Shown: piece after piece, positions 4,370-42,477 of the stretch
How positions within the stretch are numbered: the stretch's first letter is position 1
Layout of the letters: each line of letters starts with the position of its first letter
DNA from: a bacterium
GTDB lineage: Bacteria > Zhuqueibacterota > Zhuqueibacteria > Residuimicrobiales > Residuimicrobiaceae
Direction: 5' to 3'
Length of the DNA stretch: 64,000 nt
NCBI GenBank assembly: GCA_029565685.1
Contig: JAKQNR010000011.1
Span: 81,962-145,961, forward strand
The notes under the pieces: model-generated
What the model was told of the DNA's origin: nothing
The model's input: the letters and a program-made list of their open reading frames with translations, nothing else
Database searches by the model: none
Program-made: the position numbers and the translations under genes

Positions 4370-4398
4370 TTGACTCTCACCTTATATATTATTATATT
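4370..4398 (+). promoter_or_regulatory. Consensus sigma-70-like promoter upstream of arsR (TTGACT-N17-TATATT)
   Basis: TTGACT lies at 4370-4375, followed by a 17-nt spacer and TATATT at 4393-4398. The spacer is AT-rich with partial dyad symmetry (possible ArsR operator). It sits about 15 nt before the arsR ATG, so the leader is very short. Confidence 0.4.
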
Positions 4399-4413: not shown

Positions 4414-4776
4414 ATGAATGAGGAAGCTATGCACGAACCAGTGGACCTGCTGAAAGCGATCTCTGATCACGGGAGGTTGCGCATTCTCAAGTTGCTCGAG
4501 ACTCGGAGTCTCTGTGTATGTGAGATCACCGAAATCATCGGATTGGCCACCTCCACCATCTCATCTCACTTGAACCTCTTGAAAAACAGTAGGTTGATTG
4601 AGGATGAAAAGGACGGAAAATGGATCAATTACCGGTTGGCGTCGCCTGCTGATCCTCTGTTCGCCCAGCTCTGGCCTTTGATCTCTAAAAGGCTGGAGTT
4701 GGATCCGGTGGTCGCAGCGGACAAAAAAAAGGCGGCGCAGGTAGATCGTTACAAGATTTGCGGAAATGGAAAGTGA
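4414..4776 (+). CDS. arsR: ArsR/SmtB family metalloregulatory transcriptional repressor
   Basis: It has a winged HTH of ArsR type (LRILKLLETRSLCVCEITEIIGLATSTISSHLNLLKNSRLI) with a CVC metal-binding motif in helix 3. It is the first gene of an ars cluster. Confidence 0.8.
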   Translation: MNEEAMHEPVDLLKAISDHGRLRILKLLETRSLCVCEITEIIGLATSTISSHLNLLKNSRLIEDEKDGKWINYRLASPADPLFAQLWPLISKRLELDPVVAADKKKAAQVDRYKICGNGK

Positions 4777-4784: not shown

Positions 4785-7223
4785 ATGCTGAACACGGATG
4801 CCTGCGGGAGATCCTTTTGTCCAACTTGTTCCGGATTGCGGCCTTTGCGAATTTTTGTTTTGCTGACCATGGCCCTATTGCCGCTTTCGCTTTTCGCGCA
4901 GGAGTTACGCGGCGGCATCTGTCCGCCTTTTCATCTGTACGATGAACAGGGCGAGATCATTAATCCGGTCCTATCGCCGAATATCTCCCAGCCCTATTCT
5001 CCGCGGCAGACCTGCGGCAAATGTCATGACTATGAAAAGATCACTCAAGGCTATCACTTTCAGCAGGGCAAAGATGAAGTCGCCCCTGCTTTCATGCAGG
5101 AACGATACCGCTGGGTCACCTCGCCCGGTAATTACGGCGGCAACTGGTGTTCGCCCGCTCCCCTTTATCGCAGCCTGGCGCTCAAGAAGAATGAAAAGGC
5201 GCGTCAGATCGACATGACCTCTTTTGAATTCATCACCGCCACCTGCGGCTATTGTCACCCCGGCGGCGGACCAGCGGAGCTGGATCGGGAGGGCAATCGC
5301 TACGATCAGCATATGGCCGATCCTTCCAGCTCAATGACGCCGGGCGGCGACAACGGACTGGACGGCGATTATTACAAAGCTTTCTGGAGTGAAACCGGCG
5401 TGCTCGAAGCGGATTGCATGCTCTGTCATCTGCCGGAATACAACCAAAAAGAACGTCAACATCAAATAGATTTATGGAATTTCCGTTGGGCTGCCACGGC
5501 AGGAGCTCGCTTGGCCAAGGTCGAAGGAAGCATCAAAGATAAAAAGCCGGTGACTCTTGTTTATGATCTTTCTCTATTCGATGCAGAGGGCAGGCTTTCG
5601 GCACATCTCGTACGTGAACCGCGCAACGAAACCTGCTTGACGTGTCATGCCAAGCCGCAGTGGAAAAAGCGCGGCGCCAATTTCACCAGCCGCAGCGATG
5701 TACATATGAAAGCCGGGTTGAAATGTGTGGATTGTCATGCCGCCGGCAGCGCAGCAGCCGATCCGCTTATCCGTGGAAAGGAAGAGCACCAATTCGGCAA
5801 GGGAGACGATCCTTCCGGCCATGTGCGGGATGATCTGGACAACACCATGCGGGATTGCGCTGATTGTCATTTGGATGGGTATCTGAATGCACCACGACCG
5901 AAACACGCGTGGCTGCCGCCTTTGCATCTGAACAAGATCGCCTGTGAAACCTGCCACATCCCGGAGCGCGGATTCAAATCAGCCATGGTGCAGGTCAGCG
6001 ATGCGTATAATCCGGGCCCGAAAATCTCGCCGCCGGCCAAGCATATCTGGACTTTTTATGACGCCAACTTGCAATACTGGAACCATTATGGCGAGCTGGC
6101 ACAATTTAGCGTTGCCGATAAGCCGGTCGTGCCCTACAGGCCGGTTTTGGCGCGTTACAAGGATAAAATTTACCCGGTTAATCGCGTACACAGCGCCTGG
6201 CCCGGCATCGAGGAAGAGGGCAAGCCCGGCTTGAATCAGCCTTTTATGAGAGATGTGTTTGCTATGTGGCAGCGTCACCTGAAAGATCCGCTGCAATTTC
6301 CGCTGTTGGAAAAAATCCGCGATGATAACGGCGACGGCATGCCGGAAGTCAACCGCGATGAAGAGATCGACGCCATGATTGTTTCGCTTCGCGGCTATTT
6401 GCAGCAAACAGGATTCGATCTTTCCGGCAAACGCGTGGTCTGGGTCAATAATGACCTGGTCTATTATTCGGCCGGCGAACACAGGAAGCTCGCCAAAGAG
6501 ACTTTTGAAGCCTCTCCCTATGCTTCGGTATACAAATACTCCCATGACGTTTATCCGGCTCAGGCGGCACTGGGCGTGAATGGCTGCATGGACTGTCATA
6601 GCACGCGCTCCGGCTTTTTTACCGCTCCAGTGGTGCACTATCCTTTCGCAGACGAGGGCAAACCGGTTTATACAGCGCAGTACCGCCTCATGGGGTTGTC
6701 GCCCTGGGCGGTCTATGCCTCTCTCTGGCGAGAAACCTGGATGAAGCCGATTTTTTATCTGGGGATGATTATCCTCTTTATTCTGTTATTGGCCGGCCTG
6801 GGGGATAAACATATTAGAGCCCTGCTGCCTTCAGCTCGCCTGCGCCGGATTATGCTGCCGGGGATCGCCCTGGTCATTGCTTTGGCCATAGGACTTTTTT
6901 ACAGCGCAGCGCCTGAACTGTCCGCTTACATGCTGCCGTCGCGGCTGCAGCTGGACGCCAATCATTTTTATCTGGCAGTCGGCGCCATCCTGATGTCGAT
7001 GCTGGCTCTCCTGGGTTTTCCGGTCGGTGCCGGCAAATTTTTCCGCTTGGCTGAATTCATGCGCTTTATCGCCTGGACCAGCATGGGTTTGTCGGTCGTC
7101 TGCGGTTTGGCAATGCTTTGCGGCAATGGGCGTTGGTGGTACACTTTTTTTGATCTGGGATTGGTGACGATGGTGCTGGCCGCTGCAAAAGGACTGGTCC
7201 TGAAAACCTGGCAGGAAGAGTGA
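4785..7223 (+). CDS. Octaheme c-type cytochrome with signal peptide and C-terminal multi-helix membrane anchor
   Basis: There are eight CXXCH motifs (CGKCH, CGYCH, CMLCH, CLTCH, CVDCH, CADCH, CETCH, CMDCH). A signal-peptide-like segment IFVLLTMALLPLSLFAQE precedes them. The last ~170 aa are strongly hydrophobic, about 4-5 predicted TM helices. The frame runs from TTG 4758, but ATG 4785 is the preferred start, so the overlap with the arsR stop is short. Confidence 0.7.
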   Translation: MLNTDACGRSFCPTCSGLRPLRIFVLLTMALLPLSLFAQELRGGICPPFHLYDEQGEIINPVLSPNISQPYSPRQTCGKCHDYEKITQGYHFQQGKDEVAPAFMQERYRWVTSPGNYGGNWCSPAPLYRSLALKKNEKARQIDMTSFEFITATCGYCHPGGGPAELDREGNRYDQHMADPSSSMTPGGDNGLDGDYYKAFWSETGVLEADCMLCHLPEYNQKERQHQIDLWNFRWAATAGARLAKVEGSIKDKKPVTLVYDLSLFDAEGRLSAHLVREPRNETCLTCHAKPQWKKRGANFTSRSDVHMKAGLKCVDCHAAGSAAADPLIRGKEEHQFGKGDDPSGHVRDDLDNTMRDCADCHLDGYLNAPRPKHAWLPPLHLNKIACETCHIPERGFKSAMVQVSDAYNPGPKISPPAKHIWTFYDANLQYWNHYGELAQFSVADKPVVPYRPVLARYKDKIYPVNRVHSAWPGIEEEGKPGLNQPFMRDVFAMWQRHLKDPLQFPLLEKIRDDNGDGMPEVNRDEEIDAMIVSLRGYLQQTGFDLSGKRVVWVNNDLVYYSAGEHRKLAKETFEASPYASVYKYSHDVYPAQAALGVNGCMDCHSTRSGFFTAPVVHYPFADEGKPVYTAQYRLMGLSPWAVYASLWRETWMKPIFYLGMIILFILLLAGLGDKHIRALLPSARLRRIMLPGIALVIALAIGLFYSAAPELSAYMLPSRLQLDANHFYLAVGAILMSMLALLGFPVGAGKFFRLAEFMRFIAWTSMGLSVVCGLAMLCGNGRWWYTFFDLGLVTMVLAAAKGLVLKTWQEE

Positions 7224-7305
7224 GGGGCGCATCCCCCTTCAATATCCGAGTAACCGAGAGAGCGACCGGCTGTCAACGAGTTCATTTTGCCAGCCCAAAT
7301 GGATG

Positions 7306-7340
7306 CCGGTCGACAGGGTGACAAGTCCTGTCCGGGTTTT
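7306..7340 (+). terminator. Possible intrinsic terminator after the cytochrome gene
   Basis: A hairpin GACAGG-gtgacaagt-CCTGTC, extendable with CCGG/CGGG, is followed by TTTT. The stem is modest. Confidence 0.3.
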
Positions 7341-7474
7341 GCGTTTAACGACAGGAGCGGCGAGGCCTGTTTTTCGATCGACGAACAATATACAAAATCA
7401 AACCGTTAAGCTTTGCACGACTAAACCTTGAGGCCGTACGAACCGGATCACTATGCAAGGAGAGCGACTAGTAA

Positions 7475-8773
7475 ATGAATTGGAATAAAGAACTCAAACC
7501 GTTGTTTTGGATGGTCGGGGCATTCATCTTGCTTTACTATCTGCCCATCGGCACACAAAGATTTGACAATGCCGTCATGGAGGCCTTCCACCTGGTCAAG
7601 TGGTATGCTCGGGAGCATGTCTTGCTGTGTCTGGTGCCAGCTTTTTTCATCGCCGGCGCCATCGGCGTATTTGTCAGCCAGGATTCGGTAATGAGATACC
7701 TCGGGCCGCGCGCCAATAAAGTGCTGGCATACGGCGTCGCTTCGGTATCCGGCACGATTCTGGCGGTGTGCTCCTGCACGGTGTTGCCGCTGTTTTCCGG
7801 TATCTATACCATGGGCGCAGGTTTGGGACCAGCCACGGCCTTCCTCTATTCCGGCCCTGCCATCAACGTACTGGCCATCATTCTCACTGCTCGGATCCTG
7901 GGGCTGGAACTAGGCGTGGCGCGGGCGGTCGGCGCTATCGTCTTTGCGGTCATCATCGGTTTGCTGATGCACTGGATTTTCCGGCATGAAAAAAAGAAAG
8001 AGCACGACGGCCCCGTACAGTTGGATGAATCCAAAGCCGGCCGGCCCTTATGGCAGACGGTGGTTTATTTTTTCCTCATGATCGCCATCCTGGTTTTCGC
8101 CAACTGGGGAAAACCGGAGGAGACGGAAGGCTTCTGGCGCACAGTCTATTCCCTCAAGTGGATCTTGACGGCCTTCAGCGCCTTGGGTCTGGCTGTCGTT
8201 CTGGGATTGTGGTTCAATATCAGCTGGCTTCGTCTTGGTCTGGCTGCGTTGCCGGTGATTCTGCTCGGACTTTTTACCCCGTCCAGCCCGGTCTTGCTCT
8301 TTGCGATCGGTTCCGTCGGCCTGGCCGTTGTCACGGCTGTGGACAAGGGCGAAGCGGGTGATTGGTTTGCCGCTTCCTGGGATTTTGCCAAAAAGATATT
8401 GCCTTTGCTGTTGATGGGCGTGTTCATCGCCGGCATGCTTTTAGGAAGAGTGGGGCATGAAGGAATCGTTCCCTCCGAATGGGTCAACCGGGCCGTCGGC
8501 GGAAACTCCCTCTTTGCCAATTTCTTCGCCTCCATCGCCGGGGCGTTTATGTATTTTGCCACATTGACCGAGGTGCCGATTCTGCAGGGGCTCATCGGCA
8601 GCGGCATGGGCAAAGGACCGGCATTGGCGCTGCTGTTGGCCGGCCCGGCGCTTTCATTGCCGAGTATGTTGGTGTTGCGTTCCGTGATGGGAACTAAAAA
8701 GACGTTTGTTTTCGTGATGCTCGTGGTGATTATGGCGACAATAACCGGCGTGGTTTTTGGCTATTTCTTCTAG
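7475..8773 (+). CDS. arsP: DUF318/YraQ-type permease, ArsP-like (candidate organoarsenical efflux permease)
   Basis: This is a polytopic membrane protein with the conserved CSC motif in a TM helix ([11 protein letters not shown]), as in ArsP/DUF318 permeases (ICSCxxxPL). It lies immediately upstream of arsM and has an AAGGAG RBS. Confidence 0.6.
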
Positions 8774-8789
8774 CGGAGAAAGAAAAAAG

Positions 8790-9596
8790 ATGAATGAAAT
8801 GACAAATGATCAAATTCGCAAGGCTGTGCGACAGCGGTATAGCCTTGCAGCGCAAAAAAGTGAATTCGGATGTGGTTGCGGACCTTCCTGTTGCGGCGGA
8901 GAGGCGCCTGACGAAGGGCATCGGCAGACATCCGCGCGACTGGGATACACCCAGGAAGAACTGGACCAAGTGCCGGCTGGTTCAAACCTGGGCCTTGGTT
9001 GCGGCAATCCACAGGCCATTGCTGCGCTCAAGCCAGGTGAGGTGGTTCTTGATTTAGGCAGCGGCGCCGGTTTTGATTGCTTTCTGGCCGCGCAGCAAGT
9101 GGGTCCTGAAGGATTCGTCATCGGCGTGGACATGACGCCCGAGATGGTGGCCAATGCCCGGGCCAATGCCCAACAGGATGGTTATAAAAATATCTCCTTT
9201 CGCCTGGGCGAGATCGAAGCGCTGCCTGTGGCGAATGAGGCTGTGGATGTGATCATCTCCAACTGTGTGATCAATTTGTCTCCCGACAAAGAGTCGGTCT
9301 TGCGTGAAGCTTTTCGCGTGCTCAAGCCCAATGGCCGACTCGCCATTTCTGATGTGGTGGCTACGGCTGATCTGCCGCAGGAAATTCGCGGCAATCTCGA
9401 TTTATATGCGGCGTGTGCAGCCGGCGCCCTTACTATTTCAGAGTTGGAGAGGCTTCTCAATCGAACCGGTTTTATCGATATAGCGATCACGCCCAAAGAT
9501 GAGAGCCGCGATTTTATTCGGGAATGGGCGCCGGACCGTAATCTGGAGGATTATATTGTTTCGGCGGCCATAACCGCCAGGAAACCACTGCGCTGA
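8790..9596 (+). CDS. arsM: Arsenite S-adenosylmethionine methyltransferase ArsM
   Basis: The SAM-MTase motif I is [13 protein letters not shown]. ArsM-typical cysteine clusters are present: [11 protein letters not shown] near the N-terminus, ISNCVINLS and AACAAG. The start is chosen at ATG 8790, which has a GGAGAAAG RBS. An upstream TTG at 8757 is an alternative. Confidence 0.85.
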
Positions 9597-9638: not shown

Positions 9639-10688
9639 ATGGGCACCGCAAAAAAATTATCCTTTCTGGATCGCTACTTGACGATCTGGATTTTTCTAAC
9701 CATGATCGCCGGCGTCTTGGCCGGCTATTTTTCGCCCTCCATCACCGGTTTTTGGGATCAGTTTAAATCCGGCACCACCAACATCCCCATCGCCGTGGGC
9801 TTGATCCTGATGATGTATCCACCGCTGGCCAAAGTGCGCTATGAGGAATTGGGCAAGGTATTCCGCAATTATAAAGTGCTGGCGCTTTCACTGGTGCAGA
9901 ATTGGGTGGTCGGCCCTGTTCTGATGTTCTTGCTGGCGATCGTTTTTCTTCGCAGCTACCCCGAATACATGGTGGGGCTCATTCTGATCGGACTGGCCCG
10001 CTGCATCGCCATGGTCATCGTCTGGAACGAATTGGCTCAGGGCGATACCGAGTATTGTGCCGGTCTGGTGGCGCTCAACTCGATCTTTCAGGTGTTTTTC
10101 TATTCGATCTATGCCTGGATTTTCATCACCGTGTTGCCGACTCTAGTCGGCCTGAAAGGGATGGAGGTTCACATCACCATCGGGCAGATCGCCAAAAGTG
10201 TGTTCATCTATCTGGGCATTCCATTTCTCGCCGGCCTGTTCACTCGCTTTATTCTCATTCGCATGAAAGATAAAAAATGGTATCATGAGCGGTTCATCCC
10301 CAAAATCAGTCCGTTGACGCTGATAGCCCTGTTGTTCACTATTTTCGTCATGTTCTCGCTCAAGGGCGATTACATCGTCCGGCTGCCGTTGGATGTGCTG
10401 CGCATCGCGGTTCCGCTGATGATCTATTTTATCGTGATGTTTCTTATTTCTTTCTATATGAGTCATCGCGCCGGCGCCGGCTATGGTCAATCGACTACGC
10501 TGTCCTTCACCGCCTCCAGCAATAATTTCGAGCTGGCCATCGCCGTCGCCATTGCGGTGTTCGGCATCAACAGCGGTGAAGCGTTTGCAGCAGTCATTGG
10601 TCCGTTGGTGGAAGTGCCGGTGCTGATCGGATTAGTCAATGTCGCACTGCGAATTAAACAAAAATACTATAAAGGAGATGCCCGATGA
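9639..10688 (+). CDS. acr3: ACR3-family arsenite efflux transporter
   Basis: The N-terminus [25 protein letters not shown] is characteristic of ACR3. The protein has about 10 TM helices and is 349 aa. Confidence 0.85.
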
Positions 10689-10922: not shown

Positions 10923-11339
10923 ATGAAACGAAGCGCCCTCATTGTCATCTTGTTATGCATCCACTCAATTTGGGGCTGCGAAAGCGGCGGTTCCAGTGAT
11001 TCGGTCGCTCAAGGCAAGAAAGATTCCAGTCAGGTCAAGGTAACTTTTGTCGAATTGGGCTCGGTTAACTGTATTCCCTGCAAAGCGATGCAGCCGGTGA
11101 TGAAAGCGATCGAGGACAAGTACGGCGACCAAATCAAGATCGTTTTTTACGATGTCTGGAAACCGGATCAGAAAAAATACGCCCAGCAATACAAAATTCG
11201 CCTCATCCCTACTCAGATATTCCTCGATGCAAAAGGCCGGGAGATCTTTCGCCATGAAGGCTTTTTCCCTGAAGCGGAAATTGATAAATTGCTGCAATCC
11301 CATGGCCTGAAACCCGTTAAAAAGGAAAACAAGACGTGA
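10923..11339 (+). CDS. Exported thioredoxin-family protein (TlpA/ResA-like), probable lipoprotein
   Basis: The start is ATG 10923, preceded by an AAAGGAG RBS. A signal peptide with lipobox-like IWGC is followed by a thioredoxin fold with the CIPC active site. Confidence 0.65.
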   Translation: MKRSALIVILLCIHSIWGCESGGSSDSVAQGKKDSSQVKVTFVELGSVNCIPCKAMQPVMKAIEDKYGDQIKIVFYDVWKPDQKKYAQQYKIRLIPTQIFLDAKGREIFRHEGFFPEAEIDKLLQSHGLKPVKKENKT

Positions 11340-12043
11340 TCGACAGTCTGTTCAGTTATCTCAGCGGGCTCATGGCGTCCAGTTTTTCTCTGGCCTTGTT
11401 GGCGGCTCTGGTATGGGGGGTAATGAGTATTTTACTCAGCCCCTGCCATCTCTCCAGCATCCCGCTGATCATCGGCTATATCACCAGCCGTGAGAGCAGG
11501 AGCGCGCGGCACTCTTTTGCTCTGGCTTTGGTTTTCGCTTTGGGCATCCTTCTCACCATCGCGCTGGTGGGCATTGTCACTGCCTCTTTGGGCCGGTTGA
11601 TCGGCGATGTGGGCATCTGGGGCAATATCCTCGTCGCTGCTATTTTCATCGTCATGGGACTCTATCTGCTGGATGTGATTTCCCTGAATTGGAACAGTCT
11701 GCCGGCATCCTCCAGTAAATCCGGGTATTGGGGCGCCTTTGGATTGGGTTTGATCTTTGGTATCGGACTCGGTCCTTGCACCTTTGCCTATTTAGCCCCT
11801 GTGCTGGGCATTGTCTTCAGCCTGGCGCAGAGCGGCTGGCTCAAGCCCGTTCTGCTTATTCTTGCTTTTGCGATCGGTCATTGTGCGGTCATCGCACTGG
11901 CCGGCGGATTGGGCCAATGGGTGCAAGACTATTTGAATTGGAGTTCACAATCGCGAGCCGCCGGGCTTGTCAAAAAGATCGCGGGCGTATTGGTATTGTT
12001 GGGCGGAGTCTATTTCATATTTACTGCATTTGTGCAAAGATAG
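11336..12043 (+). CDS. ccdA: CcdA/DsbD-family transmembrane thiol-disulfide electron transporter
   Basis: There are six hydrophobic helices. Conserved cysteines sit in TM1 (LSPCHLSSIP) and TM4 (GLGPCTFAY). The GTG start overlaps the previous stop. Confidence 0.7.
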   Translation: MIDSLFSYLSGLMASSFSLALLAALVWGVMSILLSPCHLSSIPLIIGYITSRESRSARHSFALALVFALGILLTIALVGIVTASLGRLIGDVGIWGNILVAAIFIVMGLYLLDVISLNWNSLPASSSKSGYWGAFGLGLIFGIGLGPCTFAYLAPVLGIVFSLAQSGWLKPVLLILAFAIGHCAVIALAGGLGQWVQDYLNWSSQSRAAGLVKKIAGVLVLLGGVYFIFTAFVQR

Positions 12044-12075: not shown

Positions 12076-12447
12076 ATGGCTGAGACTATGATCGGCATTG
12101 TCGCCTGCTCCGGCGCCTCCAATACCGGACATTATTCCGACATCGTGGCGCGCAAACTGGTAAAATCAGGCAAGGCCAGGATGCTGTGTCTTGCCCGGTT
12201 CGCTGTTGATGAGGATTTCGCCGAGAAATCAAAATTGGAATTTACTGATCTGGTGGTTCTGGATGGCTGTCCCATCAATTGCGCTGAAAAAATACTTCAG
12301 CAACGCGGGATTGCTCAATTTCAGCATATCAATACCACCGATTTCGGCATCATCAAGGGTCAGACGCCCGTCACGGAGCAAAAAGTCGATGAGATAGTCG
12401 AACACATCCGCTCCTCTGCCGCGATCAAAATGTCGCCGGAACAGTGA
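12076..12447 (+). CDS. DGC-domain putative zinc-binding protein
   Basis: It contains the motif VVLDGCPINCAEK and an N-terminal Cys. Small DGC proteins recur in ars islands. The call is made from motif memory only. Confidence 0.45.
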   Translation: MAETMIGIVACSGASNTGHYSDIVARKLVKSGKARMLCLARFAVDEDFAEKSKLEFTDLVVLDGCPINCAEKILQQRGIAQFQHINTTDFGIIKGQTPVTEQKVDEIVEHIRSSAAIKMSPEQ

Positions 12448-12631
12448 GATCTTAATGAAGATAATTCAGCATACGCCTGCTGCAAAATGGACTGGCCTAT
12501 TGCTTTCCACTGTGAAAATTTAAGTAAAAGGCGTAATGAAAGATATTTTAGAATGCAAGATTGCCAATCAGAAATGGCGTGCAACCATTCAACAGTGCAG
12601 CAAAGTAGATGCCGGAGGATAAGATCCTGCC

Positions 12632-13555
12632 ATGGAATCTAGCGATTTAGCCGCAGCCGATGAACACCAAGACCTCGCAAAAAGCCTCGGGGTTTCCATT
12701 CTTCTTAACGCTTTTATTTTTCTTGTAGAGCTTGTCGGCGGAATACTCACTAACAGTCTTGCTCTCATTTCCGACTCTTTCCATAATCTCAGCGATTTTT
12801 TCGCGTTAATATTGAGCTACCTGGCTTCAAAAGTTGTCCGGTGGAAATCAAATTCGGAAAAATCGTATGGCTATGTGCGAGTTGAAATCTTCGTCGCGTT
12901 CATCAACGCCATGGCGCTGATGCTGATCGGGATGTATGTTATTTATGAAGGAATCCGACGGTTTGCACATCCAGAGCCTATCGCAGGCGGTTGGATGCTT
13001 CTCATTGGCGTCATTGGTCTCGTTGTCAATACGGCGGCCACTCTCTTATTAAAGACACACGCGAGCCATGATCTCAATATGAAAAGCGCCTACCTGCATC
13101 TTCTTACCGATGCTCTCGAATCACTCGCGGTTGTCGTCGTTGCAGGATTTATAGCGTGGAAAGATTGGCGTCTGCTCGATCCGCTTATGTCACTGGCCAT
13201 CGGGTTGTTTATCATTAAAAGCGCGTGGAGCATCGTTGCGGAGACGGTCCACCTTCTGACCGAGGGAACCCCACGAGGGATCAATTTGGAGAAAGTAGCA
13301 GCATTTATCCAATCCTTTCCCGGAGTAGAGAATGTGCATCATCTGCATATTTGGGGATTATCGTCTCGAGTGCGGGCCTTAAGCGCTCACATTGTAGTGC
13401 GGGATCAATTGATCAGCAAAACAAATTTAATCAGCACCCAATTGGGAGAAGCGTTGGAACATCGCTTTGGCATTAATCATCCTACGCTTCAGTTTGAATC
13501 TTCGGTCTGTAAAGATCAGGGAGTGATCGTGGATATAAATCATACCGAGCGATAA
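12632..13555 (+). CDS. Cation diffusion facilitator (CDF/CzcD-like) metal efflux transporter
   Basis: There are six N-terminal TM helices with the HxxxD-type motifs FHNLSD and HLLTDA. A C-terminal cytoplasmic domain is present with HHLHIWG. Confidence 0.8.
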   Translation: MESSDLAAADEHQDLAKSLGVSILLNAFIFLVELVGGILTNSLALISDSFHNLSDFFALILSYLASKVVRWKSNSEKSYGYVRVEIFVAFINAMALMLIGMYVIYEGIRRFAHPEPIAGGWMLLIGVIGLVVNTAATLLLKTHASHDLNMKSAYLHLLTDALESLAVVVVAGFIAWKDWRLLDPLMSLAIGLFIIKSAWSIVAETVHLLTEGTPRGINLEKVAAFIQSFPGVENVHHLHIWGLSSRVRALSAHIVVRDQLISKTNLISTQLGEALEHRFGINHPTLQFESSVCKDQGVIVDINHTER

Positions 13556-13601
13556 AACAAGCTCGCTCAAAAAGTATTTTACTAAGGAAAGGGAAATTGC
13601 C

Positions 13602-14213
13602 ATGTTTACCATTCCAGAATGGACGTTTGAATTTCACGGACACCGTTGTCCTTTCATGCCTATCGGTTACAGGATGGGCGCATTGATGCTGAATACTCTT
13701 GAAGTGCCAAGAGCGCAGGATCATGACTATTTCATGTTTGCGGAGCTCGGCGTCGGCCATCCGCAAACTTGCATGATGGATGGGCTTCAGGCATCAACCG
13801 GATGCACCTATGGCAAGTTGATGATCGAACGGCAGAACTTTGGAAAACTTGCCGCGACACTCTGGGCGCCTGCGAAAGGCGGCGTCCGCATCGCCGTCAA
13901 ACCCGAATTTACAGATGCCCTCGGCGGTTATGAATTCTTCACCTTCAGAAAAAAAGGGGTCGAGCCATCGCAAATTCCGGAACCCGTTCGCCTCGAAGTG
14001 ATTCAAAAAGTACTCAGCGCACCAGACGACGAGATGTTCACGGTAAAGCTAATTCCCGACTTAAAACACAAAAAGATTTCCGGTTCGTTCAATAAAGGCA
14101 AGTGCGAAGTGTGCGGCGAATATGTCTTCGAGCGGTATCTTCGTAAAAAAGATGGAAAGCATGTCTGCATTCCTTGTTCCGGCCATGAACCTTCTGTTTA
14201 CGGACAGAAATAG
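13602..14213 (+). CDS. FmdE-family protein (copy 1)
   Basis: The N-terminal HGHRCPFMPIGYRMG motif and the C-terminal C-x2-C...C-x2-C knuckle CEVCGEY...CIPCSG match the FmdE/FwdE-like family. Confidence 0.65.
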   Translation: MFTIPEWTFEFHGHRCPFMPIGYRMGALMLNTLEVPRAQDHDYFMFAELGVGHPQTCMMDGLQASTGCTYGKLMIERQNFGKLAATLWAPAKGGVRIAVKPEFTDALGGYEFFTFRKKGVEPSQIPEPVRLEVIQKVLSAPDDEMFTVKLIPDLKHKKISGSFNKGKCEVCGEYVFERYLRKKDGKHVCIPCSGHEPSVYGQK

Positions 14214-14227
14214 AGGAGCCGGACAAA

Positions 14228-15007
14228 ATGGATATGAATTCAGCGCTTCTGTTGGCGATCTTTTTTTCGTTTCTGATTGCTTTTATATTCTCGATGTTTG
14301 GCCAGGGCGGAGGATCGGTTTACTCCCCATTGCTGATTCTGCTTGGCTACGCGGTGCTGATTTCTACTTCTACCTCTTTGGTGCTGAATCTCATCACATC
14401 GATATCCGCTGGTTATGTTTTTTACAAGAACAAGATGATTGACTTTAAAGCATCGTTCATGTTTGTACCAGGCATCGTTCTTGGCGCCTTCGTTGGAGGA
14501 GCGATATCAAAATATATTAATACCAATGTTTTATTATGGTTGTTCGTGTTTTTCCTGATTTTTCTGGGAGGGCGGATGATCTATGGCTATTGGGAAAAAG
14601 TGAAGGCGGAGGAGAAGCGTCCTAAAAACCTGTCCATGACCAGCTATGTGATTATTGTAATTTTCAGTCTTGGTGTTGGTATCGTTTCCGGCTTGTTAGG
14701 CGTCGGCGGCGGAATTTTGATCGTACCGTTTATGACCTATCTCCTCAAATATCCAACCAAGTTCGCAGCGGGTTCATCGCATCTGATTATATCCTTTTCA
14801 GCACTTGCAGGAATATTAGGTCATGCGACATCTCACCAGCTCGATTATCCCTTGATTGCTGCGACCGGTGTCGCCGTTCTTATAGGAGGAAATCTTGGCG
14901 CAAGATTCAGCCTGAGAGTAAAGCCCATGATGATAAAGCTAGGACTCGGTCTTTTAATGTGGGCGCTGTCCGCTCAGCTCCTGTTAAAACTATTAGGAAG
15001 ACTGTGA
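14228..15007 (+). CDS. TauE/SafE-family membrane transporter
   Basis: A duplicated 4-TM architecture carries Gly-rich motifs (GQGGGSVYSPLL, GVGGGILIVPF). Confidence 0.7.
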   Translation: MDMNSALLLAIFFSFLIAFIFSMFGQGGGSVYSPLLILLGYAVLISTSTSLVLNLITSISAGYVFYKNKMIDFKASFMFVPGIVLGAFVGGAISKYINTNVLLWLFVFFLIFLGGRMIYGYWEKVKAEEKRPKNLSMTSYVIIVIFSLGVGIVSGLLGVGGGILIVPFMTYLLKYPTKFAAGSSHLIISFSALAGILGHATSHQLDYPLIAATGVAVLIGGNLGARFSLRVKPMMIKLGLGLLMWALSAQLLLKLLGRL

Positions 15008-15122
15008 GTAATTGACGGCTTGGAGCCGGCTTGGGAGAGCAATTGAAGCGGTAAAAGATAAGCAGAGGTATACAGCAAGTTAACAAACAATATTCTAATT
15101 AAATAAGTTATGGAGTGCGTTC

Positions 15123-15725
15123 ATGATTGATCCACAAGAATGGTTGGATTTCGGGCAAAAATTTCATGGCCACAAGTGCCCCGCCATGCCCATGGGGTTG
15201 CGTGCGGCAGCTGCAGCCATGAATGCACTTGGCGTGGAAAGAACTGGCGACAGCGCCCTTTTGGCCTTAGTGGACCTTGGCGATGATCATTGCGCCACCT
15301 GCTATGGCGACGGAATTCAAGTGCTAACCGGATGCACTTTGGGCAAAGGAAATATCAAAAAGACCCATAAAGGCAAATGGGCTCTCACCTTGATCGACAA
15401 AAAGTCCAAGCGTGCCGTGCGCGTGACGCCGAAAGCAGAAGCGATGCTGGCTAACAAAGAATCCGCATTTTTCAAAGATTATCGCGAAAAGGGTGTTCCC
15501 CCCACAAAAGTCCCGGATGAGGTCGTGGAGCCTCTGGTTCAGCGGGTGATGAATGCACCGCAAGAGATGATTCTGATCGTCTCGGAAGTGCAACCCTATG
15601 TTCTGGAAGAACCACCCCATAGCTTTAACAGTTTTGTTTGCGAAAGCTGCGGTGAGATGGTGGTTGAAGAATATGCTCGCGTTCGATCCGGCAAAAAAGT
15701 TTGTATCGACTGCGCGCAGAAATAA
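15123..15725 (+). CDS. FmdE-family protein (copy 2)
   Basis: The motifs HGHKCPAMPMGLRAA and C-terminal CESCGEM...CIDCAQK identify it as a paralog of the 13602 gene. Confidence 0.65.
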   Translation: MIDPQEWLDFGQKFHGHKCPAMPMGLRAAAAAMNALGVERTGDSALLALVDLGDDHCATCYGDGIQVLTGCTLGKGNIKKTHKGKWALTLIDKKSKRAVRVTPKAEAMLANKESAFFKDYREKGVPPTKVPDEVVEPLVQRVMNAPQEMILIVSEVQPYVLEEPPHSFNSFVCESCGEMVVEEYARVRSGKKVCIDCAQK

Positions 15726-16073: not shown

Positions 16074-17276
16074 ATGAAAATTCTCATTCTTTGTACCGGC
16101 AATTCCTGCCGCAGCCAGATGGCAGAGGGCTTGCTGCGGTCGTTTGATCCGGGGCTGGAGGTTTTTTCCGCTGGGACAGAGCCGGCAGCCGTTGTGCATC
16201 CATTGGCGATACAAGTGATGGCGGAGCTGGGCATTGATATCTCCCAGGCAAAGCCCAAACGAGCCGATCAATTTTTGCACGATGATTTTGATTATGTCAT
16301 AACCGTCTGCGATCACGCCAACGAAACCTGTCCGGTATTTCTGGGCCCGGTGCGGCATCGGCTTCATATCGGCTTTGAGGATCCGGCCAAAGTTACAGGC
16401 AGTAACGAGTTCATATTGGACGAGTTCCGCCGCATACGCGATGAAATCCGTGTCAAGTTTGACGACCTTTATCGCCAGCAGATTCGGAAGGAAATGACAA
16501 CGTGCGATAAATCTTTGGGTTTCATCGGCGCCGGCCGTGTGGCTCGAATCCTGCTGGAGGGGTTCAAGCGGGTGAACGGGCCGATGCAAGATATTTTCGT
16601 CAGCGATATCAATCCTAAAGTCATGACCGATCTGCAAAACAAATACCCCTACATCAAAACGACCGATAATCCGGCGGAGGTCGCCCGGCAGGACTATGTG
16701 TTTTTGGCACTGCATCCTCCAGCCATTCCGGCTGGAATGGAGGCAATCAAAAATGGTCTTAAAAAAGAGGCTGTGGTCATCTCGCTGGCGCCCAAAGTCA
16801 CGACTGAACGGTTGACGGCCGGACTGGACGGCTTTAATCGCATCGCCCGCTGGCTTCCTACTGCCGCAACATTTATTGGCAAAGGCTACAATCCTTGTTT
16901 TTATTCCCCCCATCTCTCATCTGCTGAACAGGCATCTCTAACAGCATTATTTTCCAGCGTAGGTGGATGCATAAGGGTCGCGGAAGATAAGATCGAAGCC
17001 TATGCCATGATTATCACCATGGGTCCGACCTATTTCTGGTTTCAGTGGCAACAATTGTTTGAATTGGGTAAAACCTTCGGTTTGTCCGAAGAAGAATTGA
17101 AATCAGGATTGCCGGCCATGCTGAAAGGAGCGATAGAGATATTCTATCATTCCGGGTTGACTCCTGAGCAAGTGAACGATCTCATTCCGGTCCGACCTCT
17201 GGCTGAAGACGAAGCGGCCTTCAAGGCCGCTTATCAAACCAGACTGACCGCCCTGTTTCATAAATTAAAGAAATAG
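16074..17276 (+). CDS. arsC: Fusion of a thioredoxin-coupled arsenate reductase (LMW-PTP family ArsC) with a pyrroline-5-carboxylate-reductase-like NAD(P)-binding domain
   Basis: The N-terminal ~140 aa carry the CX5R P-loop ILILCTGNSCRSQMAEG plus downstream Cys residues, as in Trx-type ArsC. The C-terminal ~260 aa carry the Rossmann motif LGFIGAGRVARILLEGF and align in order with ProC blocks (VVISLAPKVT; NRIARWLPTAATFIGKG; ITMGPTYFWF...). Confidence 0.6.
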   Translation: MKILILCTGNSCRSQMAEGLLRSFDPGLEVFSAGTEPAAVVHPLAIQVMAELGIDISQAKPKRADQFLHDDFDYVITVCDHANETCPVFLGPVRHRLHIGFEDPAKVTGSNEFILDEFRRIRDEIRVKFDDLYRQQIRKEMTTCDKSLGFIGAGRVARILLEGFKRVNGPMQDIFVSDINPKVMTDLQNKYPYIKTTDNPAEVARQDYVFLALHPPAIPAGMEAIKNGLKKEAVVISLAPKVTTERLTAGLDGFNRIARWLPTAATFIGKGYNPCFYSPHLSSAEQASLTALFSSVGGCIRVAEDKIEAYAMIITMGPTYFWFQWQQLFELGKTFGLSEEELKSGLPAMLKGAIEIFYHSGLTPEQVNDLIPVRPLAEDEAAFKAAYQTRLTALFHKLKK

Positions 17277-17331: not shown

Positions 17332-17742
17332 GTGGACGACTCCAGGGAATGGCGCTGGTTGAAAGGGGGGATCCTGACCTCTCTGTTATCGGTGGTCACC
17401 TATTTTATTTTTAGTGCGATCACGGAACGCCACGATGCCTTCGGCATTACAGCTGGATTCGGTTGCATGACCGCGGCATTCGGAAAGTTATTCACAGGAC
17501 TCTGCGACAATTCCGCCATCCTGAGATTTGGAAACCAGTTGAACGCCTTTATAGAGTTCTTTACGTTAATAGGATTGATTGTCGTCGGGTTCACGGCCAC
17601 AAAGCTTTCCAAAATGTTTTCTTTGGAATGGAATTCTGCTGCGTGGCAAAAATACCATGGGAATAGTGCTTTCAAAGCAGATAGGCGATCGGATGGGCAA
17701 TCTGCATCCGATCGTCATCACTTTATCCGGAGGGGGCGTTGA
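17332..17742 (+). CDS. Hypothetical small membrane protein
   Basis: There are two or three hydrophobic segments and no recognisable motif. The coding call rests only on the ORF and on spacing before the next gene. Confidence 0.2.
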   Translation: MDDSREWRWLKGGILTSLLSVVTYFIFSAITERHDAFGITAGFGCMTAAFGKLFTGLCDNSAILRFGNQLNAFIEFFTLIGLIVVGFTATKLSKMFSLEWNSAAWQKYHGNSAFKADRRSDGQSASDRHHFIRRGR

Positions 17743-19094
17743 TGCGATTTGTCCGGGCTGACATCTCGTTGCTTGTGTTATCCTTGCTGAACGCGTCCTT
17801 CGCACAAAACAGATCATCGGACTGGTCGGCCGATGGCAGTCTTCGATACCGTTTGGAAAAATATGAGGGTTATAATGCCAGGAATTACGGCGTTCAGGGT
17901 TCTGATGCATTGGGAGGGTTGGATGATGCCGTTCTTTTGCAGCGCCTGATTTTGGGTTTATCGGGACATGTCGGCCATCGGATGATGCTCGCCGTGCATC
18001 TTCAGGACAGCCGGGCTTTCGGCTGGTCTCTTCGCAACAGCCAAGAACCCGAAGCATTCCGCATGGGGGATAAGAGCGGAAAAAATTTTTACATCATGAA
18101 TCCACAGGAAGAGTTTTTTGAATTTCACGATGCCTATTTACAGATCTTAAATCCTTTTCCCCATGCGGTCCTGACGTTCGGCCGGCAAAAAATCTTTTGC
18201 GCAGATTATCGCATTTTCGGACCTGGAGACTGGGGCAACACCGGGCGCTGGACATGGGATGCGCTCCGAATACATTGGCAGCGGAATAATCTCTCTGCGG
18301 ATGCATGGGCCGGAGGCACTAAAACCCACGATCCGCAAAAAATTTCCTTTCCTTTTTTCCAGACAGAGTTTTTCGGCGGCGGCTTTTACGGCTCTTATAA
18401 GATAAAAGCCACCTCGGTTGATCTGTTCGCGGCTGTCAAGAAGCCTGGCAGCGCGGAGTATATAAAAAACCAAAGCTTTGCTCGCTATTGGTCCGGCCTC
18501 CGCCTTGACCATAGTGCGTCGCAGGGCGCCGTATACGAGGTCAGCTATACAAAAGGTTTTGGCGATCAAGCCCACAAGACGATCAACTCGTATGGTCTCT
18601 TTGCCAAGGCCGGTTGGTCGATTGGATCTTTGGCGTGGAGACCCGTAATAAGCGCGCGATATTCATATGCGAGTGGAGACGATCCCCGGACAAAAGCCCT
18701 CGAGAGTTTTGATCCGGTCTACGGCGCCGGCGACAAATATTATGGCTGGATGAATTTAGTCCAATGGAGCAATCTGGACGATCGGGAGATCATGCTGGAA
18801 CTTTTTCCTAATGCGGATGCCCGCATCGAAATTAAGTTTAATCGTTTTTCCGCGCCTCATTACGCGACCCCGGTCAATGGTACTTTGGTGATTCCTTCAG
18901 GCAAAAGTCGGTTGGGGGATGAAATGGATATTTTTGCTCGATATCCTATCTTTAAATCGCTCTATTGCACTCTGGCTTTCGGTTGGTTCATACCCCACGA
19001 AGCCCGGCTTATAAATGGCGGGATTCCAACGCAGGCGCTTTGGGGCGCTTGGCAAATGGAATATCGTTTTAGTCGACGGCTGAACTGTTTTTAG
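17739..19094 (+). CDS. Outer-membrane beta-barrel, alginate-export (AlgE-like) family candidate
   Basis: A signal peptide ending SFAQ is present. The alternating aromatic-rich pattern, the SLRYRLEKYEG motif and the C-terminal Phe suggest a porin of the alginate-export type. Confidence 0.4.
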   Translation: MMRFVRADISLLVLSLLNASFAQNRSSDWSADGSLRYRLEKYEGYNARNYGVQGSDALGGLDDAVLLQRLILGLSGHVGHRMMLAVHLQDSRAFGWSLRNSQEPEAFRMGDKSGKNFYIMNPQEEFFEFHDAYLQILNPFPHAVLTFGRQKIFCADYRIFGPGDWGNTGRWTWDALRIHWQRNNLSADAWAGGTKTHDPQKISFPFFQTEFFGGGFYGSYKIKATSVDLFAAVKKPGSAEYIKNQSFARYWSGLRLDHSASQGAVYEVSYTKGFGDQAHKTINSYGLFAKAGWSIGSLAWRPVISARYSYASGDDPRTKALESFDPVYGAGDKYYGWMNLVQWSNLDDREIMLELFPNADARIEIKFNRFSAPHYATPVNGTLVIPSGKSRLGDEMDIFARYPIFKSLYCTLAFGWFIPHEARLINGGIPTQALWGAWQMEYRFSRRLNCF

Positions 19095-19353
19095 CGAGTC
19101 TGCGGTTCAGAAATGAAGAATTGCTCATCCTACCAAAGGCGGAAATAATATGAAAATTTTCCTAGTGCACAAACCACCGCCTTTCGCGATGGTGCTTGAC
19201 TTGACGCGCCGGTAATTCCTATCGCCGCCAAACGGCGCAGGAATGGCCGAAATCCTTAGGTCCCCCCGCCTGCAGGCCTTTTCCGCCGGTTTCGGGATTA
19301 AATTCGTAGGCACTTATTCCGTATTTACCAGGAACAGTTTTGAAAGGAAATCG

Positions 19354-19692
19354 ATGATTGCCAAAGTAGAGATTAGTGCGGGTGTTTGCGGTTTTAGCAC
19401 AACCGCCAGGGTTGAGAGCGACGATGACCAGTTGGTCGCTTTTCGCATTAAAAGCGATTGCGAAAAAATCAACGCTCTGGCGGCCAGGATCGCTGATTCC
19501 GGGGCTCTCGACGCCTATGCGGAGATTTCCGCACGGGATCAAAGCCGTTTGCTCGCCCTGGCTCAGGAACAATTGTCCGGCTGTTGCGCCGCCTGCGCCG
19601 TACCCATAGGACTGTTCAAAGCCATGCAGGTGGCAGCCGGTCTGGCCTTGCCCAGAGAGGTGGTCATCCGGCTGGAAAAAGAACAGGCGTGA
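19354..19692 (+). CDS. Hypothetical small Cys-rich protein
   Basis: The ATG at 19354 follows AAAGGAAA. The 112-aa product contains CGFS...C...GCCAACAV. No family was recognised. Confidence 0.3.
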   Translation: MIAKVEISAGVCGFSTTARVESDDDQLVAFRIKSDCEKINALAARIADSGALDAYAEISARDQSRLLALAQEQLSGCCAACAVPIGLFKAMQVAAGLALPREVVIRLEKEQA

Positions 19693-19740
19693 GCCTGCTT
19701 TTGCAATATAAAAATCCCATTGAAAAAAGGAGCACGCGCG

Positions 19741-20073
19741 ATGACTTTACTTTATCTGAATTCCGACCAGATGGGCAGCGGCGATCCCGTGCTGGGTAAA
19801 AAACTGCTGAAAATTTTTTTGGAAAAACTGGCAGCCTCCGACGTTCAGGTGGATCTGGTGGGGTGTGTGAATTCGGGGATTTACCTGACCTCTGAGGGCA
19901 GCGAGGTGTTGGCCAGCCTGAAAAAGCTGGAGGAGAAAGGGGCGCGCATCGCCACCTGCGGCACCTGTCTGGATCATCTTCATCTCAGGGAAAAACTGCA
20001 GATCGGCGAGATCGGCGCCATGGACCAGACGGTGCAGGTCATGGCCATGGCGGACAGGATTATCAGGCCCTGA
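19741..20073 (+). CDS. DsrE/DsrF-like family protein
   Basis: The ATG at 19741 has a perfect AAAGGAG RBS. The 110-aa product has VDLVGCVNSG and ATCGTCLDHL, resembling the DsrE/YchN fold (VCGTSLEARG-type motif). Confidence 0.45.
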   Translation: MTLLYLNSDQMGSGDPVLGKKLLKIFLEKLAASDVQVDLVGCVNSGIYLTSEGSEVLASLKKLEEKGARIATCGTCLDHLHLREKLQIGEIGAMDQTVQVMAMADRIIRP

Positions 20074-26275: not shown

Positions 26276-26850
26276 AAAACAAGGGTATTCTGTAGCAGCG
26301 CTTCCGCGCTCGGGTTGACACCAGCCCGCTTCAGAGGATCCTATTTTCCCCCCACGCCGTGCTTGGCAACAGTGAGGTCAGACGCAGCTCCATTTTTCAT
26401 TTTTTATCAAGAGAAACCAGCCGCTTGGTTTTTGAGCGACTAGTGTGCAGTTGCAGTATTTTTGTTTGACAAGAACGCACCGTTTTTTTTCAAACAGTGG
26501 CACAGATCGCCCATGAGGGCATCGTATGTCCATTTTTGAAGGGGGATCAGTGCGTTTTCTTGGAACTGACCGGCGACTCGGCAAAGTCTTTGAACCGGCA
26601 GTTCGGCTAGTTCATGCCTTGTCCATCATGGTCAGTGGCTGTTTTTATTTCAATGGACCGAAACGCCTCATTTTTACGGCGCGGTTCTATTGTTTCCTGG
26701 GGTGACACAATGAGTCCGATAGACCTCCTGTCCCGGTTGACAGCTGGGCGCAGGATCTTCCATGAATTTTGTTCAACCTTTTCCATGTTCTTTTTGCATC
26801 CGGCCGCGGTTGAGCCGGCCACTGTGAGGAATTGCAGGAGAGACATTGCT

Positions 26851-30300: not shown

Positions 30301-30359
30301 GTGTCCATTTAATTTTACTCTGCCCTGTAGGGCGGCCCTAATAGCTTGAGCGCGAATCC

Positions 30360-42475: not shown

Positions 42476-42477
42476 TT

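Follow-up and report, generated by a model that had tools for sequence, protein, structure and literature searches.

The window analysed here is a 64,000-nucleotide stretch of contig JAKQNR010000011.1 (assembly GCA_029565685.1), from a bacterium of the family Residuimicrobiaceae. From 4414 to about 20073 it carries a cluster of forward-strand genes, an arsenic (ars) island in which arsR comes first and a gene for an octaheme c-type cytochrome with a C-terminal membrane domain comes second. This placement, directly behind arsR and ahead of arsP-arsM-acr3, had been proposed in a sequence-only reading of the window and is borne out by the coordinates and by family models (Table 1). Comparison with related proteins and their gene neighborhoods indicates that the cytochrome is a multiheme protein of the OTR/NrfA superfamily, with a degenerate cytochrome b as its anchor, that has been recruited into ars islands, and that its clade belongs, as an accessory component, to ars islands of the anaerobe type across many phyla. 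The stop codon of arsR is separated by only 8 nt from the start of the cytochrome gene with no terminator-like site between them, and this arrangement suggests that the two are co-regulated.

The cytochrome gene can be read from two starts. The ATG at 4785 is preceded by a Shine-Dalgarno-like GTGAGG, and NCBI places the start of the identical protein P0001 at the TTG at 4845, which gives 792 aa; the mature cytochrome is the same for both. Residue numbers used below follow the 792-aa form, and 20 is added to obtain those of the 812-aa open reading frame (ORF). The N-terminus bears a hydrophobic export signal that reads ..IFVLLTMALLPLSLFAQ and then E. There are exactly eight CXXCH motifs, where the protein's own cysteine and histidine composition predicts 0.02, and a motif scan found no CXXCK, CX3-4CH or CX15CH motif in the sequence. 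The protein has the features of an exported multiheme c-type cytochrome, and PF14522 matches it with 41.7 bits against a cut-off of 24.8. Two cysteines, C26 and C102, are the only ones in the mature periplasmic domain that do not belong to a heme motif. An AlphaFold2 model was built from an alignment of 135 sequences of both clades described below (predicted local distance difference test, pLDDT, 84.7; a smaller alignment of 33 sequences gave 68). It places C-terminal helices at residues 620–652, 664–688, 707–723, 733–758 and 763–790, and hydropathy likewise gives five segments. Arginine and lysine are abundant in the loops between transmembrane helices (TM) 1 and 2 and between TM3 and TM4, which fits a periplasmic heme domain and a cytoplasmic C-terminus. 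As predicted from these features, the gene product is a Sec-exported octaheme c-type cytochrome held in the inner membrane by five C-terminal helices; the signal peptide, the eight motifs and the membrane anchor of the earlier reading all stand, and its four to five helices become five.

Table 1. Features of the cytochrome gene and the surrounding ars island in the window (nt, nucleotide positions; aa, amino acids; residue numbers of the 792-aa form)
Feature	Position (nt)	Strand	Basis or remark
Sigma-70-like promoter TTGACT-17-TATATT, AT-rich stretch	4370..4398	+	10/12 consensus matches
arsR, ArsR/SmtB metalloregulator	4414..4776	+	LCVCE motif; PF01022; NF033788 81.9 bits (cut-off 55)
Octaheme c-type cytochrome gene with C-terminal membrane domain	4785..7223	+	uninterrupted ORF, 812 aa
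N-terminal signal peptide region (..RIFVLLTMALLPLSLFAQ)	4785..4901	+	hydropathy and direct sequence reading
Cys26 (Cys46 of 812-aa ORF), VCPPF motif	4920..4922	+	73/73 of the ars clade
Span of eight CXXCH motifs; predicted periplasmic catalytic-type multiheme domain, distantly OTR/NrfA-like	5013..6599	+	
CXXCH 1–4: CGKCH, CGYCH, CMLCH, CLTCH	5013, 5244, 5415, 5634 (starts)	+	
Cys102 (Cys122 of 812-aa ORF), GNYGGNWCSPAP loop	5148..5150	+	invariant in the ars clade; Ile/Val in the sister clade
Heme 2 motif CGYCH (C134-x-x-C137-H138)	5244..5258	+	only ars-clade-specific heme; sister clade has F..HL
CXXCH 5–8: CVDCH, CADCH, CETCH, CMDCH	5724, 5856, 5943, 6585 (starts)	+	
Five-helix membrane domain	6702..7220	+	AlphaFold2 helices, hhalign, conservation
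ArsP-family permease (PF03773)	7475..8773	+	260.8 bits
arsM, arsenite methyltransferase	8757..9596	+	NF008823 363.6 bits (cut-off 263)
acr3, arsenite efflux transporter	9639..10688	+	TIGR00832 458.8 bits (cut-off 282.8)
Exported thioredoxin, lipoprotein-type signal, CIPC motif	10923..11339	+	PF13098/PF00085
CcdA/DsbD_TM-type membrane thiol-electron transporter	11336..12043	+	PF02683 40 bits
DGC-domain protein, CDF transporter, FmdE, TauE/SafE, second FmdE	12076..15725	+	recur in other ars islands
LMW-PTP-type ArsC fused to ProC-like NAD(P)-binding domain	16074..17276	+	
136-aa ORF, unassigned	17332..17742	+	
Alginate_exp-family outer-membrane beta-barrel protein	17739..19094	+	104.9 bits; relatives adjoin the cytochrome elsewhere
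DUF6951 and DsrE-like genes	19243..20073	+	final genes of the same-strand island

The ArsR protein of the window carries LCVCE, the motif typical of arsenite-sensing ArsR. The promoter-like site ahead of it is the top-scoring one between 4200 and 12600, as judged by consensus match alone. Some of the labels in Table 1 need a word of caution. That of ArsP rests on the Pfam family and on context, since the NCBIfam models that match it best, those for Cu/Zn efflux and SaoE, do not reach their cut-offs; and the CcdA-type protein reaches 55.4 bits with the ArsG model NF040495, below its 200-bit cut-off. The exported thioredoxin and this CcdA-type protein form the pair that the sequence-only reading had pointed out at 10923–12043. 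Some 9 kb separate the cytochrome gene from the ArsC of the ArsC-ProC-like fusion downstream of it. The ORFs scanned, namely the island, its flanks and ten of the larger ORFs at 26–62 kb, leaving aside about a dozen further ORFs of 220 aa or more in 41–64 kb, include no molybdopterin oxidoreductase; to that extent the earlier statement that the cytochrome has no ArrA/AioA/ArxA-type partner holds. Nor do the annotated related loci contain a molybdopterin subunit of Arr, Aio or Arx. Between the cytochrome gene and arsP (7224–7474) there are 250 nt of non-coding sequence, again with no terminator-like site, where the closest relative has 81 nt (L133, 10440–10520), and an internal promoter or regulatory element within this gap is possible.

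A search of protein databases returned 1132 clusters, of which the best 120 are full-length and mostly 52–62% identical to the window protein. Almost all carriers are metagenome-assembled genomes (MAGs). They belong to at least seven phyla and include Ignavibacteriota (Ignavibacteriales), Bacteroidota (Bacteroidales, Prolixibacteraceae), Latescibacterota, Hydrogenedentota, Omnitrophota, Planctomycetota, Acidobacteriota, Myxococcota (Myxococcales) and others. Where the relatives have a name at all it is “multiheme c-type cytochrome,” “cytochrome c3 family protein” or “hypothetical protein.” In a library of representatives at 50% identity, 1013 matches were obtained at E ≤ 0.001 and 210 at E ≤ 1e-30, and the full-length ars-type form falls into a handful of clusters, which speaks for tight conservation. 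The closest relative, P0002, is 81% identical and likewise 812 aa long, and its start codon lies 8 nt behind an arsR of its own. Beside this ars-type clade stands a sister family of more than 1300 clusters, whose members have seven hemes, about 625 aa and one TM helix and are 25–30% identical. A joint alignment of 73 ars-type and 62 sister sequences separates what the two share from what is special to each. Seven heme motifs and six histidines (H71, H287, H315, H354, H361, H567) are invariant in both, and all eight CXXCH motifs are invariant across the 73 orthologues. Heme 2, Cys26, Cys102, H414 and M157 are invariant in the ars-type clade only; at the position of Cys26 the sister clade has V followed by an invariant histidine (PVH), and the loop around Cys102 is predicted with low pLDDT although it is invariant. 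The membrane domain adds R629, E630, R700, D704, H707, G754, Y766 and D770 on its periplasmic face, where K634 is also among the conserved polar residues. In all there are 85 clade-specific invariant positions. By these comparisons the cytochrome clade is a tight one, at roughly 50–60% identity along the full length, and carries no family name.

The wider affinities of the protein are distant. Pfam and NCBIfam return generic multiheme matches, and the cut-offs of named families are far from being reached. The partial NCBIfam matches are to the OTR family (TIGR04315; 37.3 bits against a cut-off of 375, covering residues 272–395), a Methanosarcina 7-heme cytochrome, and NrfB and NrfH (28–30 bits, far under their cut-offs); an NrfA-family hidden Markov model is absent among the NCBIfam and Pfam matches. 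Searched against PDB, the family profile gives a weak match to the NrfA structure 6v0a (E 4.5e-4) that spans two heme motifs, another profile gives none, and Foldseek with the model of pLDDT 68 returned only noise. The best structural match, a tentative one, is a tetrathionate reductase. Taken at this level of similarity, the heme domain is distantly related to the catalytic multiheme proteins of the NrfA/OTR type and stands outside every named family.

The origin of the membrane domain can be traced through relatives that differ in this part. P0047, L036 and L039 carry in its place a genuine cytochrome b domain of the FdnI/HydC type with four histidine ligands. An hhalign comparison of the ars-clade membrane domain with these fused domains gives a probability of 94.9% (E 4e-8), and the fused domains in turn match the separate cytochrome b that the 7-heme clade encodes as its own subunit gene (96%). 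Of the four heme-b ligands the ars clade retains His707 alone (nt 6963–6965); the TM motif YTLHD has become YTLFD, and the Pfam scan of the window protein gives no PF01292 match. Since three of the four ligand histidines are lost, the domain is, on these alignments, a degenerate cytochrome b of FdnI/HydC-type di-heme origin and probably binds no b-heme pair. A functional CbcL-type di-heme cytochrome b fusion is rejected on the same ground, and a quinol dehydrogenase of the ImcH or NapC type because the architecture is wrong; PF03264, the family of NapC/NirT/NrfH/CymA with their single N-terminal TM helix and tetraheme domain, is not among the Pfam matches of the window protein and appears only as a precomputed match of homologues, weak in the sole case that is graded.

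How general is the association with arsenic genes? We collected 34 loci of close orthologues, one genome per GTDB species and many of them on short contigs, and called their neighbors by a simple ORF caller, tblastn and clustering. At least one ars-type marker (ArsR, ArsP, Acr3, ArsM, ArsC, ArsE/F/CcdA) was found in 27 of the 34 loci, and Acr3, ArsM or ArsC in 15 of the 34. Counted together with the window (35 loci), the commonest neighbor is the ArsP-family permease (23/35), followed by ArsR (20/35), CcdA-like proteins (20/35), the ArsF-family thioredoxin lipoprotein (15/35), Acr3 (15/35), ArsC of the low-molecular-weight protein tyrosine phosphatase (LMW-PTP) type (11/35), thioredoxin (Trx; 10/35), ProC-like proteins (10/35), the ArsE-type small thioredoxin (7/35), ArsM (7/35) and rhodanese (7/35). 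The order of the genes is heavily shuffled between these loci and the gene pool is constant. The NCBIfam models of ArsF (111.5 bits, cut-off 60) and ArsE (81 bits, cut-off 62) are reached in the relatives' loci. Six further contexts, obtained by exact-protein look-up of five proteins, were ars-type without exception. With CYT for the cytochrome gene, they read ArsD/ArsA/Acr3/Porin_O_P/ArsR-Trx/DGC/DsbD/CYT/ArsM; ArsR/Trx/Alginate_exp/CYT/FmdE; ArsR/ArsP/DUF169/CMD/Trx/DGC/DsbD/CYT; ArsR/small ORF/CYT (L051, a second contig with P0107); ArsR/CYT/GcvH/DGC/DGC/OsmC/ArsR/Acr3/ArsC-ArsM; and ArsR/CYT/ArsP. Direct adjacency of ArsR and the cytochrome, a check that the earlier reading had called for, recurs in the locus of P0002, in L014 and in L052, and in L051 a single small ORF lies between the two. 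Only about 10 of the 25 ArsR copies that neighbor the cytochrome (L001–L046) carry a CVC motif; the others, mostly from Bacteroidales, differ in their effector-binding site and may sense arsenite through other cysteines or sense something else.

The 12 loci of the sister clade, on the other hand, contain no ars island; in L041 an ArsM-like match, some 9 kb away from the cytochrome gene, is their sole marker. It is this contrast with the 27 ars-linked loci out of 34 that leads us to regard the arsenic link of the cytochrome clade as real. The earlier reading would have given up its hypothesis if the relatives were never linked to ars genes elsewhere, and the 27 loci and all six further contexts favor the link. 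Of the arsenic, selenium or tellurium oxyanion handling that it had suggested, the arsenic part is upheld and nothing was found for selenium or tellurium. Counting against the link, gene clustering detects no ars gene within 10 kb in seven of the 34 loci; flanks of the full 10 kb are available for four of these, and a fifth (L029) is also long. In L020, which is ars-less by clustering, tblastn finds ArsR, Trx and CcdA.

Islands without the cytochrome were examined from the other side, by anchoring on the CcdA-type protein. This second set comprises 80 loci on metagenome contigs (L053–L132), with relatives 44–84% identical to the CcdA of the window. The cytochrome occurs in none of the 80. Among the 35 loci of at least 8 kb, the Trx partner is present in all 35, ArsE-like proteins in 30, ArsP in 26, Acr3 in 25, ArsR in 24, ArsC in 14 and the cytochrome in none. 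The nearest of these loci (L054, L056–L058; CcdA 75–84% and ArsP 75–81% identical) have the order arsR-arsP-arsM-(acr3)-trx-ccdA, that is, the ars core of the window with arsP right behind arsR and no cytochrome in between. Plasmid pSCD of Sulfuricella denitrificans likewise carries ArsM, ArsC, a Trx-CcdA pair (50% identical), OsmC, TauE, FmdE and CDF genes without the cytochrome. Because the pair is present without the cytochrome in all 35 long loci and in pSCD, the Trx/CcdA pair is, by gene content, a generic module of ars islands and the cytochrome an accessory insertion. As a side observation, a very common trio in ars islands joins ArsE, which is small, cytoplasmic and thioredoxin-like, to a membrane protein of the CcdA kind and a thioredoxin-like lipoprotein that is exported (L053–L132; L001, 7288–9188). 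Its architecture is exactly that of a DsbD-like relay that moves reducing power to the periplasm, although NCBIfam names members of it “nitroreductase subunit ArsF” and “efflux permease ArsG.”

What does travel with the cytochrome is a different set of genes. Outer-membrane beta-barrel genes of three families are found in 10 of the 34 cytochrome loci and, in addition, in the window, L047 and L048, and in none of the 80 ars loci without the cytochrome. Barrels of the Alginate_exp type or other kinds are carried by L004, L026, L031 and L048, and the one in L047 (4522–5601) is a Porin_O_P of the phosphate-selective type. The company of these genes hints at the passage of a charged species through the outer membrane. 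ProC-like genes occur in 10 of the 34 cytochrome loci against 0 of the 35 long loci without it, and rhodanese genes in 7 of 34 against 1 of 35. The ProC-like domain, which resembles pyrroline-5-carboxylate reductase, might serve to recycle ArsC as its NAD(P)H-linked partner. Stand-alone ProC-like genes (e.g., L005, 12467–13237) directly adjoin the cytochrome gene in seven loci.

Putting these observations together, our leading though tentative proposal is that the protein acts as an ArsR-controlled periplasmic octaheme oxidoreductase on an arsenical, most likely as a reductase driven by quinol. In this scheme arsenite would release ArsR, leading to co-transcription of arsR and the cytochrome gene. 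Menaquinol would be oxidized at a conserved polar pocket of the membrane domain that faces the periplasm (K634, R700, D704, H707, Y766, D770), and its electrons would run along the c-hemes to a clade-specific site formed by heme 2 and C26/C102. An oxidized anionic arsenical (arsenate, methylarsenate or a thio-arsenical), having entered through the co-located outer-membrane channel, would be reduced at this heme 2/Cys site, and the trivalent product passed on to Acr3, ArsP and ArsM. The whole would amount to a self-contained NrfH-plus-NrfA-like reductase in one polypeptide. The reductive direction is favored for several reasons. The As(V)/As(III) couple lies at about +60 to +135 mV and menaquinone at about −74 mV, so that reduction is downhill from menaquinol while oxidation to menaquinone would be uphill. 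OTR, NrfA and MccA are all reductases, and the first two are the apparent structural relatives of the protein. Arr of Shewanella ANA-3, which lies in an ars island under the control of ArsR, is a precedent for an ArsR-controlled respiratory reductase in such an island; and the outer-membrane channels that co-travel with the cytochrome, including the phosphate-type porin of L047, fit a charged substrate. The boldest version, a molybdenum-independent, heme-and-thiol respiratory reductase of pentavalent arsenicals that is fed by menaquinol through the cytochrome-b-derived anchor, we put forward with considerable doubt; we know of no methylarsenate reductase identified so far.

Several observations pull in the other direction. 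The membrane domain is without the b-hemes of its relatives and may be only an anchor, with the quinol site suggested by conservation alone. C26 and C102 are only presumed to lie close to heme 2, and a pair of thiols suits the binding of a trivalent arsenical, which favors an oxidase. The charges among the clade-specific invariants (18 acidic against 10 basic) give no clear anion pocket and no direction of the reaction. The sister clade adjoins periplasmic Gfo/Idh/MocA dehydrogenases and a cytochrome b, a pattern that suggests electron collection rather than catalysis, and thus membership of the NrfA/OTR superfamily is no proof of catalysis. ArsC, ArsM and ArsP are equally frequent in islands with and without the cytochrome, and the two sets compared for outer-membrane genes differ in taxonomy.

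Among the alternatives, the main one, itself of low probability, is that the protein works in the opposite direction, as a periplasmic oxidase of the As(III) pumped out by Acr3 or the methylarsenite pumped out by ArsP. The substrate would be bound by the thiols of C26 and C102 and oxidized at the clade-specific heme, and the far less toxic pentavalent anion would leave through the outer-membrane channel; the electrons would pass to cytochrome c and from there to a cbb3 oxidase or a nitrite or N2O reductase, or to a high-potential quinone. Such an enzyme would be a periplasmic heme-based counterpart of ArsH or Aio. The commonest partners, ArsP (23/35) and Acr3 (15/35), indeed export trivalent species, and C26 and C102, with no other free cysteine in the mature protein, are clade-specific and invariant. 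Sites made of two thiols are what ArsP, ArsI and some ArsR proteins use to bind MAs(III). The clade-specific invariant Met157, or Met124, which is invariant in the ars clade, could provide a high-potential His/Met heme, induction through ArsR by As(III) fits a detoxifying oxidase, and the loss of the b-hemes fits a plain anchor. Against it, coupling to menaquinone would be uphill by more than 100 mV, and anoxic digesters and sediments are the source of many of the MAGs that carry the gene. Conserved histidines are candidates for bis-His ligation at most of the hemes, and such hemes are typically of low potential. The nearest apparent structural relatives are reductases, and no partner gene for a cytochrome c or an oxidase recurs in the loci.

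The other alternative of similarly low standing is that the cytochrome is an electron conduit in support of thiol redox chemistry, carrying electrons under arsenic stress from the membrane or quinol pool to periplasmic Trx, ArsF-like, AhpC/TlpA-like or rhodanese proteins; or else that it acts on a sulfur compound such as tetrathionate or polysulfide. In both versions it would be no arsenic enzyme and would alter arsenic-sulfur chemistry only by an indirect route. The surroundings are rich in thiol and sulfur proteins (Trx, ArsE, ArsF, CcdA, C_GCAxxG_C_C, DsrE-like, TauE, OsmC, GcvH-like), an AhpC/Redoxin gene adjoins the cytochrome in L001 and L003, and rhodanese is enriched as noted above. 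The tentative structural match to a tetrathionate reductase, the best obtained, and the sister clade's resemblance to an electron collector for periplasmic dehydrogenases point the same way. However, no thiol partner is constant across the loci, the Trx/CcdA relay is independent of the cytochrome in the 80 CcdA-anchored loci, and the 85 clade-specific invariants, the extra heme and the cysteine pair argue for a specific catalytic site.

Two further explanations fare much worse. System II cytochrome maturation uses CcdA and a thioredoxin-like protein, and the sequence-only reading had proposed that the downstream pair is a maturation relay dedicated to the apocytochrome. The pair does share the same-strand cluster, and a CcdA-like gene lies near the cytochrome in 20 of 35 loci, but the proposal is contradicted by the 80 CcdA-anchored loci, whose 35 long members all keep Trx together with ars genes, by the cytochrome-less ars cores of L054 and L056–L058 and by pSCD; in many loci the relay is of the named ArsE/ArsF family, and we consider a dedicated relay very improbable. 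Equally remote is an arsenic-unrelated respiratory cytochrome hitch-hiking in mobile ars islands, for although seven loci are ars-less and the islands are mosaics with many unrelated passengers (CDF and RND genes), the linkage survives the shuffling of gene order across seven or more phyla, has no counterpart in the sister clade, and includes the recurrent adjacency to ArsR.

Among the known systems, OTR of Shewanella oneidensis (SO_4144, PDB 1sp3; TIGR04315) is a soluble protein of about 440 aa that is not linked to ars genes; the window protein differs in its 812 aa, its five-helix membrane domain, about 200 extra periplasmic residues and a score of 37 bits against 375. With NrfH-NrfA it would share the logic of a membrane quinol dehydrogenase feeding a periplasmic catalytic multiheme domain, but in a single polypeptide instead of two and without a CXXCK motif. 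NrfH itself is of the NapC/NirT type with a single N-terminal TM helix, whereas the anchor of the window protein is C-terminal, has five TM helices and derives from cytochrome b. Fusions of the CbcL and FdnI/HydC types (PF01292) have the same order of a periplasmic multiheme part followed by a membrane domain; the window protein keeps a single b-heme histidine and has no PF01292 match, and the comparison was made with the domains of P0047, L036 and L039. The octaheme sulfite reductase MccA is a heme c-copper enzyme whose active site consists of heme 2 and two cysteines that hold Cu(I). In the ars clade, too, heme 2 and two invariant cysteines stand out; no sequence or fold match was obtained and the window protein has no CX15CH motif, and the likeness is a lead only. 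ArrAB (with CymA or ArrC) and AioAB/ArxAB resemble the suggested role, a periplasmic arsenic redox reaction wired to the quinone pool, yet these are molybdopterin enzymes and the cytochrome would perform heme-only chemistry. The Trx and CcdA of the window and the ArsE and ArsF of its relatives belong to the families of the ArsEFG/CcdA-ResA-type thiol relays, which are independent of the cytochrome.

The arsenic redox enzymes catalogued so far are either molybdoenzymes (Arr, Aio, Arx) or cytoplasmic thiol or flavin enzymes (ArsC, ArsH). A description of this cytochrome family, or of any cytochrome as a component of an ars island, was not found in the open-access literature, subscription journals not being covered. 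The word cytochrome is also absent from the main text of the paper on AsgeneDB, a curated arsenic-gene catalogue of 2022. The recurrent island membership suggests a heme-based redox step in the arsenic handling of anaerobes that has not been described, a missing periplasmic step. If the protein is a heme-based arsenical oxidoreductase, it would represent a new enzyme class for the arsenic cycle, and if it is a heme/thiol reductase it would explain arsenate reduction or respiration in organisms without arrA. Arsenate reduction or respiration in arrA-negative organisms is on record for Anaeromyxobacter PSR-1 (PMC4432346), Fusibacter (PMC9751042) and Melioribacter (PMC5492636). The cytochrome is a candidate for such arrA-negative arsenate reduction, for methylarsenate reduction and for anaerobic detoxification of methylarsenite. 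Sediments, aquifers, paddy-type soils and digesters commonly harbor the phyla that carry it, and its gene would serve as a new marker in metagenomic surveys of arsenic.

Some observations from the related loci deserve to be recorded in their own right. In the sister clade (L037–L044, e.g., L040, 9977–11863), found in Planctomycetota, Bacteroidota and KSB1, a separate gene for a cytochrome-b-like protein of about four TM helices comes after that of the 7-heme single-TM cytochrome, and the neighbors include several Gfo/Idh/MocA oxidoreductases and large proteins that were tentatively read as DUF1080-type; the arrangement looks like an uncharacterized route from periplasmic dehydrogenases to the quinone pool. 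Related ars islands also contain fused genes (L047, 5761–6345 and 10489–11583; L052, 14407–15558), namely ArsR-Thioredoxin_3, ArsM-Thioredoxin_3 and LMW-PTP ArsC-ArsM, as well as two or three DGC-domain genes in a row and, next to the cytochrome, a GcvH-like gene. In the lineage of P0107 (source label Dermatophilaceae; L050, 6973–14869, and L051, 4016–11912), CIS_tube, Phage_GPD and baseplate genes stand directly after the ars-cytochrome cluster and form a set of the contractile-injection-system or phage-tail-like kind. Farther along the window, at 26614–38194 and 40471–48014, there are three very large secreted-type proteins and then a Flp/Tad-type pilus cluster (RcpC, secretin, T2SSE ATPase); among the large proteins are a BNR/YCF48-like protein, an S8 subtilase and one of 1580 aa that has 13 InlB B-repeat-like domains and ends in a FlgD_ig domain.

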